A stretch of DNA of 23,474 bases, from contig JBHLLP010000053.1 in NCBI GenBank assembly GCA_048885525.1, positions 1 to 23,474 on the forward strand. Reading direction: 5' to 3'. Positions 3,530 through 21,645 of this stretch are shown here, piece after piece; position 1 is the stretch's first letter; each line of letters begins with the position of its first letter. The position numbers were made by a program, and so were the translations under genes. This DNA comes from Candidatus Hermodarchaeota archaeon (GTDB lineage: Archaea > Asgardarchaeota > Lokiarchaeia > Sigyniarchaeales > SOKP01). The notes below the pieces were generated by a model. The model did not search any database and was not told the origin of the DNA. It was given only the letters and a program-made list of their open reading frames with translations.

Positions 3530-5026
3530 ATGAGAAAGAAGTATTTTATTTCGCGTATAATTATAATAATAATCGTTTCGGAATTAGTAACTGCTTTTAT
3601 GCTTTTTCCTTTCTCTATAGTTCATTCCTGTATTCCTATGGGTCCGATTGAATGGGTGAAAACTTGGGGTGGAGATAATCAAGAAATAATGTTTGAAATG
3701 GTTGTAGATTCTTCGGAGGATATTTTTATCGCAGGTGAAATTTGGAGTTATGATGAAACTTTTAATGATATATTTATAGTTAAGATAAACGAAACTTTTA
3801 GTTTTAATGCCACGTGGGGAGATGTAATGCAACAAGAATTTAGTGGAATGGTTTTAGATTCAGAAGAAAATATTTTCATCACGGGTTCCAGTACGGGCTA
3901 TTTACCAGGAATAAAAGAAGTTTTTTTATTAAAATATAACAATAATCTTACATTAGAATGGTCTACTACCTGGGATGTTATAGGATTAGATTTTAGCGCT
4001 GGTATAGTCGTTGATTCCTTAGATAATATATATATTTCGGGAATGACGAATTATCCTAATTGTGACGTTTTTCTTATAAAATACAATAATTCAGGAGCTA
4101 TACAATGGAACTATACCTGGTCTACAGAATCAAATAATACCTCTGAAGAAGTATTATCAATGGTAGTTGATTCTATGGATAATATCTTCCTTGGAGTAAA
4201 TACAAATACCACTGGATCAGAATGGTTTTTATTAAAATATAATTCTTCGGGAAGTTTGTTATTAAATCGTTCATATAATAAATTTATTCCGATAGAGCAA
4301 TTAGTTATAGATTCTTCTGATGATTTGTATGCTCTTGGATCTTATAATAGCACTTATCTTACAAAACTCAATAATGAAGGTAATGTAGAGTGGAATTTAA
4401 CGTGTATACAAAATGTTTTAAGAGGTACAGAAAAATTAGTAATAGATTCATCTGATAATGTATTTGTTATAGGAAATGAACTTATCAATCTGTCAGCAAT
4501 TGTTCATGGGTATAATATGACTGATTACGATACATATTTGATGAAATTTAACGAAACTGGAGATTTATATTGGAATCATACAATATCTTATAGTAATAAT
4601 ATATACCCAGAATTATTGACATTTGATCCCTTAGGCAATATCTATTTTGGAGGATCGCTAGGGATGATTGCACCAGGAGGTTTGGGTTATTCTATTATAA
4701 TTTTAGATAATTTAGGTTACTGTATAAGAAGCGAAAGTGGTGGTTGTACAAAAGGAAATTGTTATTGTAAAGGAATATACGCAGAATCACCAATTAATTT
4801 TATTGCTGCCATAAATTCACCTTGTTGCGGAGAAGATTATTATGATATAATGTTAATTAAATATACTAAATTTGATATTAGTCATTGTCTCCCCGTTCCT
4901 AATCCTTGGCTTATTGGTATACTTCAAATTGGAATAAGTACAATTTTAGTAATAATAGGAATATCTTACTTGGTTAAAAAAGAGAAAAGGCGTAAGGTTC
5001 AAAGATCTTTATTTAAAATCATTTAA
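3530..5026 (+). CDS. Membrane-anchored beta-propeller (SBBP-like repeat) surface glycoprotein, paralog 1
   Basis: N-terminal signal/TM segment. Repeated W..TWG...E...MV(V/L)DS.DNI(F/Y)I.G ... DVFL.KY blades, many N-x-S/T sequons, and a C-terminal TM helix followed by KKEKRRK. Confidence 0.85.
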   Translation: MRKKYFISRIIIIIIVSELVTAFMLFPFSIVHSCIPMGPIEWVKTWGGDNQEIMFEMVVDSSEDIFIAGEIWSYDETFNDIFIVKINETFSFNATWGDVMQQEFSGMVLDSEENIFITGSSTGYLPGIKEVFLLKYNNNLTLEWSTTWDVIGLDFSAGIVVDSLDNIYISGMTNYPNCDVFLIKYNNSGAIQWNYTWSTESNNTSEEVLSMVVDSMDNIFLGVNTNTTGSEWFLLKYNSSGSLLLNRSYNKFIPIEQLVIDSSDDLYALGSYNSTYLTKLNNEGNVEWNLTCIQNVLRGTEKLVIDSSDNVFVIGNELINLSAIVHGYNMTDYDTYLMKFNETGDLYWNHTISYSNNIYPELLTFDPLGNIYFGGSLGMIAPGGLGYSIIILDNLGYCIRSESGGCTKGNCYCKGIYAESPINFIAAINSPCCGEDYYDIMLIKYTKFDISHCLPVPNPWLIGILQIGISTILVIIGISYLVKKEKRRKVQRSLFKII

Positions 5027-5096
5027 GACTATAATACTAATACTTATTTTAAGATACAAACATCTATGAAAACAATTAAAATTATATTATAGGATT

Positions 5097-5176
5097 TAGT
5101 ACTTCTACTTCCTTTTTTCGGTATATTTTTAAAATATCCTTATTGTACAATAATGTATATATAGAAATTTTACTTA
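5097..5176 (+). promoter_or_regulatory. Conserved 80-bp upstream element, copy 2
   Basis: Ungapped match to 3401-3480. The palindrome variant TGTACA-ATAA-TGTATA lies at 5144-5159. Confidence 0.75.
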
Positions 5177-5251
5177 TTTAAGAGAAAGAAATTTGATTCA
5201 TAAAGTGGTTTTAAAATTATAACCAAAAAGCAATATTACGCATTAGTTATT

Positions 5252-6724
5252 GTGCTTCTAATTGGAGTTTCGGGAACTGGTTCCATCTACTTTGCCATTA
5301 CTCCTTCGATTATATGTCCTCCTGGTTCACCTATCGATTGGGAGCAAACATGGGGCGGAAATGATAATGAAATATTGTATGAACTGGTCGTAGATTCCTT
5401 GGGTTATTTCTATTTAGCGGGAGAGACATGGAGTTATGGTAATGGTAGTAGTGATTTATTTTTAGTTAAAATGAATGGAACAGTTGCAGAAAATAATACA
5501 TGGGGTGGCGTAGAATCTGAAGAATTTAGTGGAATGGTTTTAGATTCAAATGATAATATCTATGTCGCAGGATCAACTTTAAGCTACGGAGCTGGGGAAA
5601 AAGATGTTATTTTATTAAAATATAATACAAGTGTTAAATTAGAATGGGATGAGCTCTGGGGGACAAATAATTCTGATATCTGTCGTAGTATCGCTGTAGA
5701 TTCTTTTGATAATGTATACATCACAGGTATTAATAACAATCCATACTATGACATTTTTCTAGCAAAATATGATAGGCTGGGAATTCAACAGTGGAATCGC
5801 ACATGGAGTACTGAGCGCTTTAATATAACTGAAGAAGTTTTTTCATTAGTAATTGATTCTACTGATAATATATTCCTTAGTGTAAAGACAAACTTCACGG
5901 GATCAGAGTGGTTCTTATTGAATTATAACAGTTCAGGTAATCTATTATTAAATATATCATATAGTAAGTATCACCCTCTTGAATTATTAGTTTTAGATTC
6001 TTTAAATAATTTATATGCAGCTGGTTCATATAATGACATGTATCTATCTAAATTGGATAATAATGGCAATGTAGAATGGAATGTTTCATGTATTCAAAAT
6101 GTTTTAAAAAGCTCTGAAGTTTTAGCAATAGATCCTTTTGATAATATTGTTATTGCAGGCAATGAACTCATCAATGCTTCAGCTAATCTTTATGGTTACA
6201 ATATAACGGATTATGATACTTATTTAATGAAATACAACAATACAGGAGTAATAGAATGGAACCATACCATACCTTATAGTAATAATTTATTCCCTGAGAT
6301 AATAGCATTCAACTCATTGGGTTATATATATCTCGGAGGTTCGTCTGAGTTTATTGCTACAAAAGAATTGACCCTTTCTGTGGTTGTTTTTGATCAATCT
6401 GGCAATATACGAAGAAGTGAGGGAGGGGGTGAGATTAAATATTGTGAGGGAATATATGGAGAATCAGTTATGAATTTTACTGTAGCAGGATATGGATATA
6501 GATACTTGTATCCCACAGGTACTAGTACTGATTATGATTTAATATTAATAAAATATAAAGAACCAGAATATTATTGTCCATATGATCCACTTAATCATTA
6601 CATCCCGGTTATGATAATTTTTAACATATTGTTTTATATTTCTTGTATAATAGGGGTAATTTTCTTAATTAAACAACGCAAGACCCGTTTAAAAACAATA
6701 AATTTCTGGATGTTTCGATATTAA
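5252..6724 (+). CDS. Membrane-anchored beta-propeller (SBBP-like repeat) surface glycoprotein, paralog 2
   Basis: Collinear with 3530-5026 (EFSGMVLDS, TGSEWFLL, CIQNVL, GNELIN, TDYDTYLMK, WNHTI.YSNN). The frame is open upstream to 5204, so the true start may be ATA at 5219. Confidence 0.85.
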   Translation: MLLIGVSGTGSIYFAITPSIICPPGSPIDWEQTWGGNDNEILYELVVDSLGYFYLAGETWSYGNGSSDLFLVKMNGTVAENNTWGGVESEEFSGMVLDSNDNIYVAGSTLSYGAGEKDVILLKYNTSVKLEWDELWGTNNSDICRSIAVDSFDNVYITGINNNPYYDIFLAKYDRLGIQQWNRTWSTERFNITEEVFSLVIDSTDNIFLSVKTNFTGSEWFLLNYNSSGNLLLNISYSKYHPLELLVLDSLNNLYAAGSYNDMYLSKLDNNGNVEWNVSCIQNVLKSSEVLAIDPFDNIVIAGNELINASANLYGYNITDYDTYLMKYNNTGVIEWNHTIPYSNNLFPEIIAFNSLGYIYLGGSSEFIATKELTLSVVVFDQSGNIRRSEGGGEIKYCEGIYGESVMNFTVAGYGYRYLYPTGTSTDYDLILIKYKEPEYYCPYDPLNHYIPVMIIFNILFYISCIIGVIFLIKQRKTRLKTINFWMFRY

Positions 6725-6885: not shown

Positions 6886-7347
6886 ATGGCAGTTCTTGAA
6901 ATTGGAATTAACCTTGGTATGAAAAATTTAGTTGATATTAGGTACTATTCATCATCAGATAAGGTGTTAGATCCTAATATACGAGCTAAGTTTCTAACGG
7001 GATTAAAAAGCTTCATTACAGAGGTATATGGTGATAAGATTAATATTATATCTTTTTCGGACTTTGAAATTGTGTGTTATTTTAAAATGATTGAATTACC
7101 AAGTAAAGAAGCTACTGAAACTCAGCCTTTATTATCATATGCTATTATTGAAAAAGGTACAGATCCGAATTTTGTAAAACGGCATTTAAAGGAAATTAAC
7201 TCTAATTTTCTCAATCGTTATGCTCTCAATGATATTTTTTCAAAAGAATCTAAATATTTTAAAAAATTTAAACCTAGGGTTGATGAAATACTCGGAGATT
7301 TAAAGTTAAAACTAGGAGATCGTATTGAATCTATTTTTAAACATTAA
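6886..7347 (+). CDS. Soluble longin-like domain protein
   Basis: Asgard longin pattern: two beta strands, then FLTGLKSFITEVYGDKINIISFSDFEIV, a further strand, the helix VKRHLKEINSNFLNRY and a terminal F..F...VDEIL helix. Confidence 0.75.
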   Translation: MAVLEIGINLGMKNLVDIRYYSSSDKVLDPNIRAKFLTGLKSFITEVYGDKINIISFSDFEIVCYFKMIELPSKEATETQPLLSYAIIEKGTDPNFVKRHLKEINSNFLNRYALNDIFSKESKYFKKFKPRVDEILGDLKLKLGDRIESIFKH

Positions 7348-7426
7348 ATGTCATCTTACCATTACAAAAATCACAAATTTCCTTTCAATCATACAATAAA
7401 GAGAAAATAAAAAGAATAATATTTGT

Positions 7427-8110
7427 TTATTTAATCAAGAAACCTTTAAATATAGTTATCGTCGCAATATCAACAGATATTAAAGCAAAAACTTCAATTA
7501 GGATAAAATCGAAGGCTCCTCCAACTAAGTCTACAAGAAGAGCTATAAAGATGAAAATAATTCCTATAAAAAACCATTGTACTCTTTTTTTAGTTTCCCC
7601 TTCTAAATTTCTAGACATTAGAGCATATTTATATACAACATAAATTAATAATGCCGCCCTGATAGAAATGATTGAAATGAACCAAGGAAGTGGAGTTTTA
7701 GTATCAACAATATCTAGTGTATATCTTTCCATATTTAAAGTTGGACGCCAGATAAGATACCCGGTACTCATAATAATAAATATTACAATCATTATTCCTA
7801 GATATCTTGGACTCATGGCAACCTTTTCATATTTTTCTAATACAAATACTGTCATCATTAAGGAAATAAAAATTAAATTGAAAAAGATCTGAGCAGTTAT
7901 CATCATTGGAATAATAATCTGTGAATAATTCAATATTAAATGATAAATTGTGTAAATTAAAAATCCTAAAGAAGAGGAAATAAAGAATAAAGTAAACCAT
8001 TTATTTAACAAGTTATCCGGATTTAAACGTAACACTCGAAATCCTACGGTAAATGAAATAACAACAGTTATTGCTGCAGCGATTATTTTAATTAGGTTAT
8101 TAATATCCAT
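7427..8110 (-). CDS. Stand-alone seven-transmembrane protein resembling the HisKA_7TM-type sensor domain
   Basis: Seven hydrophobic segments. It has the 'NPDNLLNKWF' N..F motif after TM1 and a basic KKR before TM6. No cytoplasmic output domain. Confidence 0.7.
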   Translation of the reverse strand: MDINNLIKIIAAAITVVISFTVGFRVLRLNPDNLLNKWFTLFFISSSLGFLIYTIYHLILNYSQIIIPMMITAQIFFNLIFISLMMTVFVLEKYEKVAMSPRYLGIMIVIFIIMSTGYLIWRPTLNMERYTLDIVDTKTPLPWFISIISIRAALLIYVVYKYALMSRNLEGETKKRVQWFFIGIIFIFIALLVDLVGGAFDFILIEVFALISVDIATITIFKGFLIK

Positions 8111-8193
8111 AATATATTCTTTTGATATAGTTAAATAAAAAGGTTTTCATAAAAGTATATTAATAAAAAAGGAATTTCAAGGAAAAATTACTT

Positions 8194-10383
8194 TTAATCT
8201 TCTTTGAAAACTTCTTCAAGCTTTCTATGATTTTCTTCAATCTTAAAGTTTTGGAGTGCTCCAGTCCAATCTTTTAAAATATGCTTATATTTCTCTTCGA
8301 ACCAGCTAATGAATTCTTTTAATGGAGCCCTAACTTCAGCAGATTGAGTACCTTTTATAAAGAGTGCTCCAAATATACGTTCACCATACTCTATAAGTAT
8401 TGTAATATCTCCATGGTCAATTTTCTTCAAAGCTTCTGTAGATTTCGTCATTTCTTTAATAAAGGAAGTAATAGCAGAGAACATTCCAGAGACTAGTCCA
8501 GGATCTTGTTCAACATCTTTTTGGAAAGCATAGTTATAAACTCCTCGTCCATCATCATATATAATATAAAGCCCTTGCTTTTCTACAGATTCGAAAATAT
8601 AGCTTAACTCCGGTTTCCAAATACTTATTAGATTATTATTAAAGAGATATCTTAATGTAAAATAGAATCTCCTTTTCTCATTTTCTTCTAAAGGTCTTAA
8701 TTCTTTTAGAAATCTATCTTCATCTAGCTTATCTAATAGAATTTTTACCTCTTCACGTTCCCTATCTAGATTTTCCGTGATAATTTCTTCATTCTTTGTG
8801 ATTAAATATTGAATTTCGCTTTGATTATAATCATTATATTTGATAAAATCATCTATCGTGGCGAAGATAATTTTTTCTTCATGTCTTTCATCCATAGAGA
8901 TTATTTTGCTTTTAAATGATTTTCCTATGTAAAAAATTATCAGGCTCCATATAAATACGTTAAATACAAATCGAGTATATAAATATGGTATAGCTAATAC
9001 ATTTAAGATGCCTGAAAATGTTGCTTCTAAACTAGCAGTTCTAAATGTAAAGAAAAGCGAATTAAAAATGTTTAGGTAACTCAATTGGCCTGTTAACCAG
9101 TACTCCTGTCCAGCAAATATGAACACTGAAATTATAATTATAATAGGTAGATAAATGATATATCCTATAAACTTACTTTTTGCGTATTTTAAACTCTTAG
9201 ATAAGAAAAGTCCTACTATTATAACAGGTGCTAGAACTTGTAAAAAGCCTAGAGAGATTAGTAGTTCAAATTTTAAGGAGTTTATTAAATTTGGACTAGC
9301 TTCAGTAAAATTTGCTTGTGATAATATAGTGGGTTCACTTAAATATGGAAAAAAAAGAAAATTAGAGATTGCAAAATATACAATAAAAAAGAGTCCAATA
9401 GCAACTAAACTATAGAAAATAATGAGTAGAATATTACTTGAATCGATATTTTTCATTTTCTCTTTTTTTGTTTTCCACCAATCAATTGTTTTTACTAAGA
9501 TGAGTATAGAAATTGGTTCAAAGATTTTAAGGAATAAAACGAAAATTATCGAAGCCATTATAAAATATGCAAAGAAAAAGATGATAATTAAAATTGAATC
9601 AAAATATTGAGCAAGAAACAATAAGATTGATAAAATTGATATAGGAGCTCCAACTGTGTAAAGACTTTTAAAAGTTTGCCTCCTTATTTCTTCTCCAAAA
9701 TATTTACCTTTTAATGCTAGTTTAGAGCTAAACACTAATTCAATACTAAATATAAACATGGCAAGATAAACAAATAAAATCTCGAGAAACCATCCTAATG
9801 CAGTATTTCCGGTTGTGAGAGATTCATGCTCTAATCCAGAAACAGATAATATCACTTGCAATATATAGAGTGAAATAGGCAAAAGTACAATCATTAATTT
9901 AAGAATTTCTTTTTCTCTTGAAAAATCTCTTTTAGCAATCTCGTCTCGTATCATTTTATAAGGACTTTTATCTAAATGATAAGAAATTTGTTTTAAATTT
10001 TCTTTAATAGTACCTTTTTCTTTTCTCAAATGATTCCATACAATTATTAGAGAAATAAAAGGAGCCACAAAAAATATAAAAGGTAAAGTAACCAATGGAT
10101 ATGTTGCAAATAGGGTTAGTAATGTTCCGATACGTGCGCCTATAAACTGAATTGCTAAAGTAGTATCTCCTCCAGTTAATTCTTTTGGTTCAGTATTAAT
10201 TTGAAAAATAATTGGTAAAATCCAATAAATCAAATAGAATACTACAATTCCTAAAAAAATTCTAAAATACAATTTACCTATAGTTTTTTTCCAAATGAAA
10301 ATTAGAGGTATAATTAAAATAAGTATTGGAAGCGCGTTTAATAATATCGTAAGAAAAATTACTATACCATTCATAATAGTCAC
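8194..10383 (-). CDS. Polytopic membrane protein (about 12 TM) with a C-terminal longin domain
   Basis: About 490 aa of hydrophobic helices, then a soluble linker, then a longin domain at about 8194-8580: GLYIIYDDGRGVY...QDPGLVSGMFSAITSFIKEM..LKKIDHGDITILIEYG..FEEKY...LKDWTG...F. Confidence 0.85.
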   Translation of the reverse strand: MTIMNGIVIFLTILLNALPILILIIPLIFIWKKTIGKLYFRIFLGIVVFYLIYWILPIIFQINTEPKELTGGDTTLAIQFIGARIGTLLTLFATYPLVTLPFIFFVAPFISLIIVWNHLRKEKGTIKENLKQISYHLDKSPYKMIRDEIAKRDFSREKEILKLMIVLLPISLYILQVILSVSGLEHESLTTGNTALGWFLEILFVYLAMFIFSIELVFSSKLALKGKYFGEEIRRQTFKSLYTVGAPISILSILLFLAQYFDSILIIIFFFAYFIMASIIFVLFLKIFEPISILILVKTIDWWKTKKEKMKNIDSSNILLIIFYSLVAIGLFFIVYFAISNFLFFPYLSEPTILSQANFTEASPNLINSLKFELLISLGFLQVLAPVIIVGLFLSKSLKYAKSKFIGYIIYLPIIIIISVFIFAGQEYWLTGQLSYLNIFNSLFFTFRTASLEATFSGILNVLAIPYLYTRFVFNVFIWSLIIFYIGKSFKSKIISMDERHEEKIIFATIDDFIKYNDYNQSEIQYLITKNEEIITENLDREREEVKILLDKLDEDRFLKELRPLEENEKRRFYFTLRYLFNNNLISIWKPELSYIFESVEKQGLYIIYDDGRGVYNYAFQKDVEQDPGLVSGMFSAITSFIKEMTKSTEALKKIDHGDITILIEYGERIFGALFIKGTQSAEVRAPLKEFISWFEEKYKHILKDWTGALQNFKIEENHRKLEEVFKED

Positions 10384-10475
10384 TTTTTTTAGTGATAAAA
10401 GTAGAGTTTATTTAAAATAAATGTATGTAATTGTTATTATAATAATTTAGTTATTCTTGATTATTTACTTTTGCA

Positions 10476-11573
10476 ATGACACAAAATAATAAAATTGGAT
10501 TAGTAATAGATAAAGATTTTGCTATAAAAAATGTTCCTCCTTATCCATATCCTACATTTCTTTCGTATGAAACACCCTTAAGGATCAAATCAATCTTAAG
10601 TTATTTAGAAAAGAAGGCGATTTTTAAAAATGAGAAAATTATTGAAATAAAACCAATCGCAGTAGAGGAAGATATTATTCATTTAGCACATACAGATTAT
10701 CATATTAATTCAATTAAAACACTATCAAGTAGGGGAATTGGATTATTAGGGGAGGAAGTTTATGTCACTGAAGATACTTTTGAATTAGCTAAAAAAGCAT
10801 TAGGTGGTGCTATAACTTCAATTACTAGTGTAATAAATCATGAAGTTAATCAATCTTTTGCATTTATAAGGCCCCCAGGACATCATGCTTTACGAGAAAT
10901 GGCTTCTGGGCTGTGCATTTTTAATAATATAGCAAATGCTATAATCTATTTGCGCACAATACTTCAATATAATAAAAAAGTAGCAATAGTGGACATAGAT
11001 GCTCATTTCGGGGATGGACTTGTTCAATATTTTTATGATGATCCAAGTGTATTATATTTCTCTATTCATGAATATGATTTTGTAGAAGGAGAAATAGGAT
11101 TTATTGACGAATTAGGTACAGGAGATGGTCTTGGGACAAGTATCAACTTTCCTATTCCATTAAATTCTACTGATAATGAATTTTTAGAATCGATAGAAAT
11201 ACTTGAGCCTGTCTTAAAAGAATTTAAACCAGATCTTATTATTATTGCCGCAGGATTTGATATGTATTTTGATGATCCCATAGGAAACTGTCTATTAACA
11301 ACAGTTTCTTATTATAAATTTACTGAATTATTACTGAAAATAGCTGAGGATATTTGTGAGGGTAAATTAGCTTTTATACTTGAAGGTGGTTACAGTTTAA
11401 TAGGATTATCTGTTTGTATATTTTCTGTGATCAAAGCGTTATTAAAAGAGGATTATAAGCCCCCACTATTTGAAAATTTAGATTTTTCAAACAATTCCAA
11501 AAAAATTGAACTTGGTAAAATTAAATCTAGTTTAAAAAAGCTTTTATCTAATTATTGGAGTTCAATAGGATAA
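10476..11573 (+). CDS. Zn-dependent histone deacetylase superfamily protein (HDAC/AcuC/APAH)
   Basis: RPPGHHA, GLCIFNN, DIDAHFGDG, SIHE, AAGFD and catalytic LEGGY motifs are all present. Confidence 0.95.
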   Translation: MTQNNKIGLVIDKDFAIKNVPPYPYPTFLSYETPLRIKSILSYLEKKAIFKNEKIIEIKPIAVEEDIIHLAHTDYHINSIKTLSSRGIGLLGEEVYVTEDTFELAKKALGGAITSITSVINHEVNQSFAFIRPPGHHALREMASGLCIFNNIANAIIYLRTILQYNKKVAIVDIDAHFGDGLVQYFYDDPSVLYFSIHEYDFVEGEIGFIDELGTGDGLGTSINFPIPLNSTDNEFLESIEILEPVLKEFKPDLIIIAAGFDMYFDDPIGNCLLTTVSYYKFTELLLKIAEDICEGKLAFILEGGYSLIGLSVCIFSVIKALLKEDYKPPLFENLDFSNNSKKIELGKIKSSLKKLLSNYWSSIG

Positions 11574-11589
11574 AAAAGATAAAAAAAAT

Positions 11590-11991
11590 TTAGACAAAAT
11601 CCTTTAATTTTAAAGCATATTCTTGAGCTGCGAAGAGAGCATCTCTAGGACCTGCCTGAGGATTTATATAACAAACTAATGCTCCTGTGCCTCCAATTGG
11701 AACAGGACAGATGATAAGATGCCCTTTACCAGTAATGTTTGTCCCTATCTTTCGTTCTTCTGTATTCTCTACTATCATATATTTGATGCCTTGTATGGTA
11801 ATACTACTGATCCCTTTTTCACCTAATTCCAGTTTTTGATTAAGCAACTCATTGATAAGATCAAGATCATTAGTCAAATCCCAATTTTCTGTTTGGGTGA
11901 TTAAATTGCCATCTTTGCTTATGATACCTACTCCAAATATATTTTGCTCTTCGTTTAACAAATCATCAATTAATGCTTCAATTTCGGACAT
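11590..11991 (-). CDS. Loki-type profilin (actin-monomer-binding eukaryotic signature protein)
   Basis: ITQTENW, the 'Loki loop' KLELGEKG, IQGIKYMIVENTEERKIGTNITGKGH and NPQAGPRD closely match my recollection of the characterised Loki profilins. ATG at 11991 is preceded by GGTGG; the track's TTG start at 12000 is the alternative. Confidence 0.92.
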   Translation of the reverse strand: MSEIEALIDDLLNEEQNIFGVGIISKDGNLITQTENWDLTNDLDLINELLNQKLELGEKGISSITIQGIKYMIVENTEERKIGTNITGKGHLIICPVPIGGTGALVCYINPQAGPRDALFAAQEYALKLKDFV

Positions 11992-12000
11992 TTCCACCAA

Positions 12001-12096: not shown

Positions 12097-12639
12097 TTGG
12101 CTTTTAGAATGTGGAGAAAGGCTATTCTTCTATCTTTACGTGAAAAAAGAGTATTTACAGTTTTTACATTAATCTATACAACTTTGATATTTTTAACATC
12201 GTTTTTCATAGATTTGGGACTTGAAGGCGGATTTGGAGAAATGGTATGGTATTTTGTTTTAATCTTTTTTGGAACTTCGTTATTTCTCTCTTTACTCTAC
12301 GCATGGATTTTAGTCTCAAGAAAAAGACGTGTTTGGGCTACATTTAAATGTATAGGATATACAAATAAGAATATATTATCATTAGTTTCAGGTATGATCT
12401 TTTTTACAACTTTAGTAGGTTTTTTTATCGTAATTGAAGTTCTATTTCATTATGCTGCTGCTATTGCTTATATTAATCAAACCCCCATAAATTTTTCTCT
12501 TACAATATTAGTTGATTTAGTTCCTGTAGTTTCTACCAGTGTAATTTTTATATGTGTTCAAATAGTTGCTTTTATTTTAGCATACAGAAAAGTGCTGAAA
12601 GTAAGGCCAATAATAGCCCTGAAAAAAGTAGGAGAGTAA
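12097..12639 (+). CDS. Minimal FtsX/MacB-family (type VII) ABC permease
   Basis: Amphipathic N-helix plus 4 TM. RKRRVWATFKCIGYTNKNI matches the FtsX 'R..E.G..KA.G' coupling helix, and the C-terminus is KVRPIIALK. Confidence 0.85.
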   Translation: MAFRMWRKAILLSLREKRVFTVFTLIYTTLIFLTSFFIDLGLEGGFGEMVWYFVLIFFGTSLFLSLLYAWILVSRKRRVWATFKCIGYTNKNILSLVSGMIFFTTLVGFFIVIEVLFHYAAAIAYINQTPINFSLTILVDLVPVVSTSVIFICVQIVAFILAYRKVLKVRPIIALKKVGE

Positions 12640-12654
12640 GGAGGTTATAGAGAA

Positions 12655-13341
12655 ATGTCTGATAAAGATATAATGATTGAAGCAGTAGATGTTAATAAAG
12701 AATACAGAAGAGCTGGTGCTATTATTAGAGCGTTAGCTGATGTAAATCTAAAAATCAAATCTGGAGAATTTGCTATCGTTCAAGGCCCAACTGGTTGTGG
12801 GAAATCTACACTTCTTAATGTCCTGTCAGGATTAGACTTACCGGATTCTGGTAGAATCATTTTTGATGGGGAAAATATCGCTAGGTCAACTGAGGATAGA
12901 CTAAGCAGACTTAGAAGACAGAAAATAGGTTTTGTATTTCAAGATTTTAATCTTGTTAATACTTTAACAGCTATAGAAAATGTGGAATCAGTATTATGGC
13001 CTACAGTTTTACGCCAAAAAGAAATTGAAAATCGAGCAATTTCTGCTTTACGTGACGTTGATTTACTTGATCGTAAGGATCATTTTCCTGTCCAGATGTC
13101 TGGTGGAGAGAAACAGAGATGTGGTATCGCACGTGCCATCATCCATAGACCAAGAGTTATTCTAGCAGATGAGGCTACTGGAAATTTAGATCCAGAATCT
13201 GAAAAGCAAGTTATGGATCTATTAAAGAAAATTAATAAAGAAATGGAGACAACCATTATTTTTGTCACACATAGAGATTTATCTAAATATGGAACAAAAA
13301 CAATTCTTATGGATAATGGTCGAATCACTAAAATTCAATAA
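12655..13341 (+). CDS. ABC ATP-binding protein, LolD/MacB/FtsE family
   Basis: Walker A GPTGCGKS, IGFVFQDFNL, signature MSGGEKQR, Walker B ILADE, TGNLD and VTH. GGAGGT RBS upstream. Confidence 0.95.
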   Translation: MSDKDIMIEAVDVNKEYRRAGAIIRALADVNLKIKSGEFAIVQGPTGCGKSTLLNVLSGLDLPDSGRIIFDGENIARSTEDRLSRLRRQKIGFVFQDFNLVNTLTAIENVESVLWPTVLRQKEIENRAISALRDVDLLDRKDHFPVQMSGGEKQRCGIARAIIHRPRVILADEATGNLDPESEKQVMDLLKKINKEMETTIIFVTHRDLSKYGTKTILMDNGRITKIQ

Positions 13342-13548
13342 AATGAAATGTATTTTTTATCTTTACTTTTAAATCTTTTTTAGTATTTTTTTAAAAAATC
13401 TGTATCTCAAAAGTTTACAGTTTTATTCTTCTCAAAATTAATTTTGAACTAGATTGAATTTTATGCCAAAAATATAAATATTCAGAGCATTTTTGATTAG
13501 TAATAAGGAAATTAAAATCGTTTAATTACATATTGTTAGGGGATAATT

Positions 13549-21114: not shown

Positions 21115-21645
21115 CTAAAGCAAATTAGACTTTTGCATCATTAATCGAGATAAAGCTTCAAATGTTTCTTCTACATTCTCACCGGTCTTCGAGCTACATT
21201 CTATAAAACCATCTACATTTCTAGATCTTGCGATATTAATACCTTCATCTCCTGTGACTTCACGATCATCTATAAGATCTGCTTTTCCTCCAACCACTAT
21301 TATAGGAAATTGATCTTCGAGTCTAAGTTCTTTTCTTATTACCATTAACCAATCGTCTATATGTGCGAGAGAACTATAATTAGTAACGTCATACATAAAT
21401 AATGCTCCATTAGATCCTCGTACGTAGGTGGGTAGTAAAAATCGAAATCGTTCTTCACCACCGAAATCCCAAATCTGAAGTTTAATTTTTTTACCGTTTA
21501 TATCAAGGCTTTTAACCTCAAAATCTACTCCTATTGTCATTTTTGAATCAGATTTAAATAAATTAGTTAAAAATCTTTGAGTTAAAGTAGTTTTTCCACA
21601 ACCAGCATCACCAAAAATTACGATTTTGTACGTCGCATCATACAT
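21115..21645 (-). CDS. Rab-like small GTPase
   Basis: G1 GDAGCGKT, G2 TIGVDF, G3 WDFGG, G4 GKAD and G5 CSSK. RabF-like motifs IGVDF, KLQIW, RFR, YVRG and MYDVT. Strong GGAGGGAGGT RBS upstream. Confidence 0.95.
   Translation of the reverse strand: MYDATYKIVIFGDAGCGKTTLTQRFLTNLFKSDSKMTIGVDFEVKSLDINGKKIKLQIWDFGGEERFRFLLPTYVRGSNGALFMYDVTNYSSLAHIDDWLMVIRKELRLEDQFPIIVVGGKADLIDDREVTGDEGINIARSRNVDGFIECSSKTGENVEETFEALSRLMMQKSNLL

Follow-up and report, generated by a model that had tools for sequence, protein, structure and literature searches.

Longin-like, deacetylase and profilin genes of a Lokiarchaeial genome probably form a layered neighbourhood, not one signalling module

Results

Gene content and orientation

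The DNA analysed here, hereafter the window, is a stretch of 23,474 nucleotides that forms contig C53 (JBHLLP010000053.1) of a Lokiarchaeial genome of 3.58 Mb (99% complete, ~29% G+C). Between positions 6886 and 12000 it carries five open reading frames (ORFs) with alternating strands, which encode a soluble longin, a seven-transmembrane (7TM) protein, a 729-aa membrane protein ending in a longin-like domain, a zinc-dependent histone deacetylase (HDAC) and a profilin. An initial annotation had proposed that these genes form a membrane-to-actin signalling locus. It was right that the five genes are adjacent and in its domain calls (longin, 7TM, membrane-longin, HDAC, profilin). The comparisons described below suggest, with a probability of about 0.6, that the genes of this stretch are transcribed separately and form a layered neighbourhood, not one signalling module. 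All five ORFs were confirmed at the coordinates given here, and the adjoining transporter genes are listed with them:

6886..7347, + strand: soluble longin-fold protein, 153 aa (model and structure matches)
7427..8110, - strand: orphan membrane protein with ~7 transmembrane (TM) helices and no soluble domain, 227 aa (hydropathy)
8194..10383, - strand: 729-aa membrane-longin protein, complete gene (hydropathy and profile evidence)
8914..10383, - strand: membrane region of the 729-aa protein, residues ~1-490, ~11-12 TM helices (hydropathy)
8602..8859, - strand: winged-helix-like linker of the 729-aa protein, residues ~509-594 (model with a predicted local distance difference test score, pLDDT, of 76-91)
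8242..8577, - strand: C-terminal longin-like domain of the 729-aa protein, residues ~603-714 (profile evidence)
10476..11573, + strand: Zn-dependent deacetylase of class II (HDAC6/HDAC10/HDAH) type, 365 aa (PF00850)
11590..12000, - strand: Loki-type profilin, 136 aa (match to PDB 5yed/5yee)
12097..13341, + strand: short FtsX-like permease (180 aa) and FtsE/LolD-like ABC ATPase (228 aa) (PF02687, PF00005)

The 729-aa gene lies upstream of the 7TM gene on the same strand, with a gap of 83 bp. The HDAC gene diverges from the 729-aa gene (head-to-head, 92 bp between them) and converges on the profilin gene (tail-to-tail, 16 bp between them); the profilin gene in turn is divergent (head-to-head) from the FtsX-like/ABC pair at a distance of 96 bp. 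Since the strand switches at every junction except that from the 729-aa to the 7TM gene, the layout allows at most one two-gene operon. Only these two genes could share a transcript, and their co-transcription is possible. A promoter and terminator scan was made with bacterial-type models and is uninformative for an archaeon.

Conservation of gene order

Gene order was compared in three sets of genomes. Profilin served as the anchor in 10 from the same genus and 10 from other genera in the order, the 729-aa gene in 20 from across the phylum, and the permease in 30 from the family. Counts out of 11 for the window's genus (g1) include the window genome.

The oldest layer consists of the profilin gene and, divergent from it, the short FtsX-like/ABC pair, an arrangement present throughout the order. 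Profilin adjoins this pair in every one of the 10 loci from other genera of the order and in all 29 family loci in which the flank was present; the pair is the most conserved neighbour of profilin, and the only deeply conserved one. In the second layer, a class IIb-type HDAC and the 729-aa gene were joined to the block within the family and part of the sister family (f2). The HDAC gene adjoins profilin in genera g1, g13, g14, g16 and g18, in one of the two g15 genomes, and in f2 g5 and f2 g10; it was not beside profilin in g12, f2 g2, f2 g9 or family f4. The 729-aa gene stands head-to-head with the HDAC gene, at a spacing of 86-280 bp, in g1, g13, g14, g15, g18, f2 g5 and f2 g10. No neighbour was shared with the window by the full-length 729-aa orthologues of families f5, f11, f15, f17, f23 and f24 or of f2 g2. 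The core of membrane-longin, HDAC and profilin genes is kept together in at least seven genera of two families.

The youngest layer is made up of the 7TM and soluble longin duplicates, which landed at the edge of the block in this genus only. The soluble longin gene is at the locus in 8 of the 11 genus genomes and adjoins the 729-aa gene in seven of them (G223 included), and the 7TM gene is at the locus in four; neither was found there in any other genus compared. One genus genome (G005, 100% complete) has no 729-aa gene and retains the HDAC, profilin and soluble longin genes. None of the genes to the left of position 6886 had a counterpart in any related locus, and therefore the two young genes lie at a synteny breakpoint. 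Beyond the genus, only the 729-aa, HDAC and profilin genes recur (together with FtsX and ABC), in two families. The synteny that had been expected around profilin holds for the three-gene core and not for all five genes as a unit; the soluble longin and 7TM genes beside the 729-aa gene are recent duplicates confined to the genus, with parents elsewhere.

Profilin and its transporter neighbours

The profilin (136 aa) matched PDB entries 5yed/5yee with an E value of 1.1e-63 over residues 5-136 and entry 5zzb with 7e-62; with the Pfam model PF00235 it scored 22.9 bits, just below the 25-bit cut-off. Profilin matches were present in 39 of 41 related genomes. Entry 5yee is a profilin/actin complex (PMC10933270), and the structures of Loki profilin-1 and -2 (5yed/5yee, 5zzb) are those of Akil and Robinson 2018, as cited in PMC10933270. 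The window profilin has the same length as these proteins (136 aa) and aligns with them end to end, with nothing notable that differs. By this alignment it is an orthologue of the crystallised Loki profilin, whose actin binding is structurally proven, and it almost certainly shares the actin-binding function of Loki profilin-1/-2.

The permease gene was recognised by PF02687 (6.5e-8) and gave no NCBIfam match; the ATPase matched PF00005 (5.6e-33) and the FtsE model TIGR02673 (4.3e-59, below that model's cut-off). The FtsX-like/ABC pair is present in 84 of 201 sampled Asgard genomes (loci L111-L130). A profilin hidden Markov model (HMM) built from the orthologues of the order detected no profilin beside FtsX/ABC in 20 loci of other Asgard families, which may reflect a limit of sensitivity. 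The position of profilin is filled by a Rab-like GTPase gene, 0.5-1.1 kb away, in the 10 loci of family f9, which represent at least 8 genera, and partly in f28.

Two further observations concern profilin-like sequences. At ~13354-13467 of locus L027 (G022:C1) a 38-residue N-terminal fragment of profilin, 68% identical, lies beside the FtsX gene; the intact profilin of G022 is 3 kb off, the promoter region between profilin and FtsX having been split there by a local rearrangement or insertion. The profilin query also matched, with E values of 1e-8 to 1e-11, the N-terminal ~110 residues of ORFs of 205-240 and 410-450 aa in nearly every related genome (e.g. G000:C5:32074-32382 and G000:C32:22028-22339). 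These longer ORFs look like a family with profilin-like or roadblock-like N-terminal domains.

The deacetylase

The 365-aa deacetylase matched PF00850 with an E value of 2.6e-72 (244 bits); NCBIfam gave no match. Comparison with the catalytic domains of HDAC6 yielded 4e-39 and 9e-43 per domain, and with bacterial HDAH 7e-47. In the alignment to HDAC6 CD1/CD2 the GHH (His-His), D-x-H, GFD and GGY motifs were all present, i.e. the enzyme has the catalytic His-His, the Asp/His/Asp zinc ligands and the GGY tyrosine of class II Zn-dependent HDACs. It shares with HDAC6/HDAC10, HDAH and APAH a catalytic domain of ~320 residues with conserved motifs. Unlike HDAC6, it has a single catalytic domain, not a tandem, and lacks the ubiquitin-binding zinc finger; furthermore, the alignment places Phe after the zinc-binding His, where HDAC6 has His. 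The genome holds three further HDAC paralogues.

HDAC6 is a cytoplasmic, cytoskeleton-directed deacetylase of animals, and its catalytic domains are the nearest solved relatives of the window enzyme. This counts for an explanation in which the older three-gene core is functional: the genes of the 729-aa protein and of the HDAC6-like deacetylase would share a divergent promoter, and their products would act on the actin system together with profilin. The head-to-head spacer of 86-280 bp between the two genes, seen in 6 genera of two families, and the tail-to-tail arrangement of HDAC and profilin across most of the family fit such a scheme. However, HDAC remains next to profilin in g16, where no 729-aa gene was found, and the genes are separated in g12, f2 g2 and six other families. 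Moreover, bacterial amidohydrolases reach scores similar to those of single HDAC6 domains, and the three additional paralogues also count against this explanation. Taken together, these data make a functional three-gene core unlikely. As for the earlier suggestion that actin dynamics are tuned by deacetylation, nothing but adjacency ties the deacetylase to actin.

The 729-aa membrane protein

Hydropathy analysis of the 729-aa protein indicates ~11-12 TM helices followed by a soluble tail from residue ~495. The protein matched no Pfam or NCBIfam family, and a PDB profile search with the whole family returned nothing significant. Within the tail, confident modelling was confined to the linker (residues ~509-594), whose best VIA matches are winged-helix/RRE-type domains, with Z scores of at most 6.7, which is within the noise range of the tool.

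Residues ~603-714 correspond to a mobile domain that HMMER detected in at least 990 cluster representatives, in many architectures ranging from 145 to 4,052 aa. Four of 45 sampled carriers are MFS transporters. Pfam searches with these 45 proteins gave no longin family. When 63 diverse copies of the domain were compared with the soluble longin family, hhalign returned a probability of 93.2% (E 3e-7, 98 columns), the match running from helix 1 as far as the C-terminal helices; a direct comparison of the two shallow orthologue alignments yielded 14.7%, and the value of 93% was reached only with the diverse domain copies. Applied to the genome of the window, an HMM of the tail domain matched an ORF that carries PF19036 Fuz_longin_1 (2.8e-8), as well as longin-GTPase, longin-wHTH and TPR-longin fusions. 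The best hits of a PDB profile search were Trs23, MglB and Bet5, none of them significant. The AlphaFold2 model of the domain had a pLDDT below 50, though the order of its secondary structure elements fits a longin. Foldseek found no match in the PDB at E<=0.001, and the VIA search covered the linker only. We use the term longin-like because the assignment comes from profiles and the order of secondary-structure elements rather than from a fold match. By these profiles the tail domain is homologous to the soluble longin family.

Full-length orthologues of the 729-aa protein were found in 54 of the 201 sampled Asgard genomes, belonging to 15 of 59 genera. Neither TM-longin or MFS-longin fusions nor this locus were found in the literature searched, the coverage of which was incomplete; in these sources the predicted membrane-tethered longin-like architecture of 15 of the 59 sampled genera was not found described earlier. 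The 729-aa orthologue of family f5 has a Rab-like GTPase gene ~2 kb upstream of it, from which it is separated by a single 363-aa gene; the three loci concerned (L061-L063) come from ~1.4 Mb genomes of one genus and hence count as a single observation.

The soluble longin and its parent copy

The AlphaFold2 model of the soluble longin (pLDDT 74.8) has the DSSP order beta-beta-alpha-beta-beta-beta-alpha-alpha, i.e. the five-stranded sheet of the longin fold, in the proper order and with no N-terminal helix. VIA aligned it with the longins of VAMP7 and Sec22b at Z 15.5 (119-122 residues; root-mean-square deviation 2.5-2.6 A) and with synbindin at Z 14.9. All 50 best PDB matches are longin domains, the Lokiarchaeial longin 8yqg among them, and Foldseek gave an E value of 2.7e-4. 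The curated sequence models of Pfam and NCBIfam detected no longin in the protein; a language-model lead pointed to a PF19036 cluster (score 0.89), and three close homologues carry PF27631. Eukaryotic longin platforms (Mon1-Ccz1, TRAPP Bet5/Trs23, Fuzzy-Inturned) and SNARE longins (VAMP7, Sec22b, Ykt6) have the same fold as the soluble longin (Z 10-15.5 over 117-130 residues). In contrast to them, the longin proteins of the window have no SNARE motif, second longin or DENN module. They also differ from the eukaryotic platforms in having no partner Rab by gene order, and their identity to solved longins is 6-15%.

A second copy, of 151 aa and 63% identical to that of the window, is encoded at G000:C9:82062-82514. 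A tree of 121 family members separates a 153-aa clade, with the window copy, from a 151-aa clade, and among the 201 Asgard genomes the extra copy was seen only in the genus of the window. In four other genera the homologue of the soluble longin is on a different contig. On the evidence of the tree and this distribution, the window longin is a genus-specific duplicate of the 151-aa longin gene. Within the genus, identities are 57-79% for the window-type duplicate vs 77-93% for the parent copy, which indicates that the duplicate evolves faster than its parent.

The 151-aa parent shares its strand with a gene for a DRG-type GTPase (MMR_HSR1 + MMR_HSR1_Xtn + TGS), which follows it downstream at a distance of 25-112 bp:

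G000:C9:82062-83730 (L136:6063-7731): 151-aa longin and DRG-type GTPase pair; also in loci L134, L137-L139, L141 and L152

The pair is kept in g1, g13, g14 and g18 and in g2 of the sister family f2, that is, in five genera of two families; the f2 g2 members are 35-40% identical. The adjacency was not found in families f14, f21 and f29, nor in G030. Such conservation suggests that the longin is a partner of the archaeal DRG. Eukaryotic DRG GTPases have DFRP partner proteins, and the parent longin locus resembles the DRG-DFRP systems in that a small partner protein would be encoded beside a DRG. The likeness has its limits: the DFRP proteins are not longins, and the window's copy of the longin no longer lies at the DRG locus.

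At L136:2113-3624 (G000:C9; also L131-L134), ~2.4 kb upstream of the 151-aa longin, there is a gene for a 507-aa protein with an actin-family domain and weak zinc-ribbon matches. A prenyltransferase-like gene and FolD come next, and the family conserves this order.

The 7TM protein and the left flank

The hydropathy plot of the 7TM protein (227 aa) has about seven peaks and shows no soluble domain. No Pfam or NCBIfam family and, in a PDB profile search, no solved relative was found. A sub-threshold lead in a language-model atlas (0.89) pointed to a cluster in which 10% of the members carry HisKA_7TM (PF16927); none of the 35 members of the 7TM family matched PF16927 at E<=1. The initial annotation had described the protein as kinase-less; the window contains no kinase gene. 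A paralogue, 67% identical, lies at C23:19982-20662. The 7TM gene at the locus is a genus-specific duplicate with its parent copy elsewhere. The longin and 7TM paralogues themselves lie apart, on contigs C9 and C23 (their adjacency was checked).

Further to the left, positions 3530-6724 of the window are occupied by genes for a tandem pair of paralogous surface proteins, each with SBBP beta-propeller repeats and a C-terminal TM anchor, which had no counterpart in any of the 10 same-genus loci.

Small GTPases and chance expectation

The initial annotation had named a Rab-like gene about 9 kb away as a possible GTPase of the locus:

21115..21645, - strand: Rab-like small GTPase (PF00071), judged not linked to the locus

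The gene matches PF00071 with an E value of 1.4e-46 and is collinear within the genus only. Longin-like ORFs and Ras-superfamily loci each number at least 50 in the 3.58-Mb genome, and the chance of finding a GTPase gene within 10 kb of any point is ~24%. The Rab-like gene was rejected as linked to the locus, its collinearity ending with the genus and its distance being at chance level. This absence of a linked Rab agrees with the pattern reported for MK-D1, whose GTPase genes as a rule do not share operons with longin or roadblock genes (PMC10933270). The GTPase tied to the soluble longin family by gene order, if any, is the DRG and not the Rab. The chance that a given longin-like ORF has another within 1.5 kb is ~4%, as recalculated from the final count of 50 ORFs (2.4% at 30 longin-like ORFs); with this per-gene chance, one or two close longin-like pairs are expected per genome. 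For comparison, 41 longin-like domains were counted in the Loki composite genome (PMC4917890), and the Asgard longin/roadblock repertoire includes longin-GTPase fusions (PMC4917890; PMC10933270). The soluble longin and the 729-aa gene both belong to this expansion.

These observations bear on the original proposal of one pathway for the five products, in which the 7TM protein is the sensor, a longin dimer is a guanine nucleotide exchange factor-like platform for the Rab 9 kb away, profilin provides the output and the deacetylase tunes it. The pathway is favoured by the adjacency of the genes, which three further genomes of the genus share with the window, by genuine longin folds and by a weak pass in the complex test described below. 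On the other hand, the 7TM gene, which the proposal made part of the module, is off the locus in 7 of the 11 genus genomes, G005 does without the 729-aa gene, and no other genus has the soluble longin or the 7TM gene here. The chance-level distance of the Rab-like gene, the DRG-type GTPase as the conserved partner gene of the soluble longin family, and the alternating strands of the genes point the same way. The five-product pathway is largely refuted by synteny, and we regard it as highly improbable.

Predicted pairing of the two longins

Prediction of a complex between the tethered longin-like domain and the soluble longin gave a median score of 0.55, the best of three controls reaching 0.03. 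The runs agreed in at least 74% of the contacts, the pLDDT of the partner was at least 72, and the verdict of the tool was 'weak support'. In its calibration 58 of 80 solved complexes and 2 of 110 mismatched pairs attained the pass mark; passing scores of 0.60 or under were those of only seven of the 80 solved complexes but of both passing mismatches. The postulated pairing of the soluble with the tethered longin therefore passed the test, but with weak support only; the prediction raises its likelihood just a little.

A genus-specific sub-module could be built on such a pairing: the duplicated soluble longin would be the dimer partner of the tethered longin, with or without the 7TM protein, in a membrane-anchored heterodimer. 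Apart from the passed complex test, it is favoured by the homology of the two domains, by the retention of the soluble longin beside the 729-aa gene in most of the genus genomes (7 of 11), and by the faster divergence of the duplicate relative to its parent. Nevertheless, according to the calibration a pass at 0.55 is, without a strong prior, more often wrong than right. Longin-longin dimers are common among solved structures, so that a pass may reflect mere likeness, and cousins of true partners also pass. In addition, G005 has the soluble longin without the 729-aa gene, and with ~50 longin-like ORFs in the genome the pairing in such a heterodimer may not be specific. Considering both sides, the sub-module appears rather unlikely.

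Discussion

Taking into account the strand switches, the different depths at which the genes are conserved and the separate origins of the two duplicates, we interpret the stretch as a layered neighbourhood of separately transcribed genes. The caveat of the initial annotation, that the genes lie on mixed strands and the linkage may be only conserved synteny, has turned out to be the better reading. Three observations weigh against this interpretation. The mixed-strand block of 729-aa, HDAC, profilin, FtsX and ABC genes, together with a 259-aa gene, is kept between families at 35-66% identity; neutral decay usually leaves less gene order than this, and there may be some coupling, e.g. through shared divergent promoters. 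The longin-longin complex test was passed, if weakly (0.55 vs 0.03 for the best of 3 controls), and the soluble longin is kept at the locus in most genomes of the genus.

With a layered neighbourhood, each product would have a role of its own. The profilin would regulate Lokiactin, as its crystallised orthologue does. The deacetylase is predicted to be catalytically competent, with protein lysines, histone tails or polyamines as candidate substrates. The 729-aa protein, which is polytopic and Asgard-wide, would hold a longin platform at the membrane on a cytoplasmic tail, and this platform could recruit a longin or GTPase partner or report the state of the membrane domain. The soluble longin would be a diverging copy of the partner of a DRG-type GTPase, perhaps recruited in this genus as a dimer partner of the tethered longin.

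A much bolder conjecture is that the 729-aa protein founds an Asgard-wide class of membrane-embedded longin platforms, i.e. polytopic or transporter-like proteins (MFS fusions included) that recruit longin or GTPase partners through a cytoplasmic longin domain. In the order of the window the protein would be coupled, genomically and functionally, to an HDAC6-like deacetylase and profilin as a membrane-to-acetylation-to-actin axis. We consider this quite improbable; if true, such platforms would prefigure, in prokaryotes, the membrane-anchored scaffolds that regulate GTPases.

Longins, small GTPases and profilins of Asgard archaea are central to the arguments on the origin of the eukaryotic control of membranes and cytoskeleton, and it is hard to tell in these genomes which regulator works with which partner. 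The analysis provides three testable leads: the tethered-longin membrane protein, the longin-DRG gene pair, and the neighbourhood of profilin and the FtsX-like/ABC genes. Through any of them, an Asgard longin or profilin could for the first time be assigned a partner in a way that is open to experiment.

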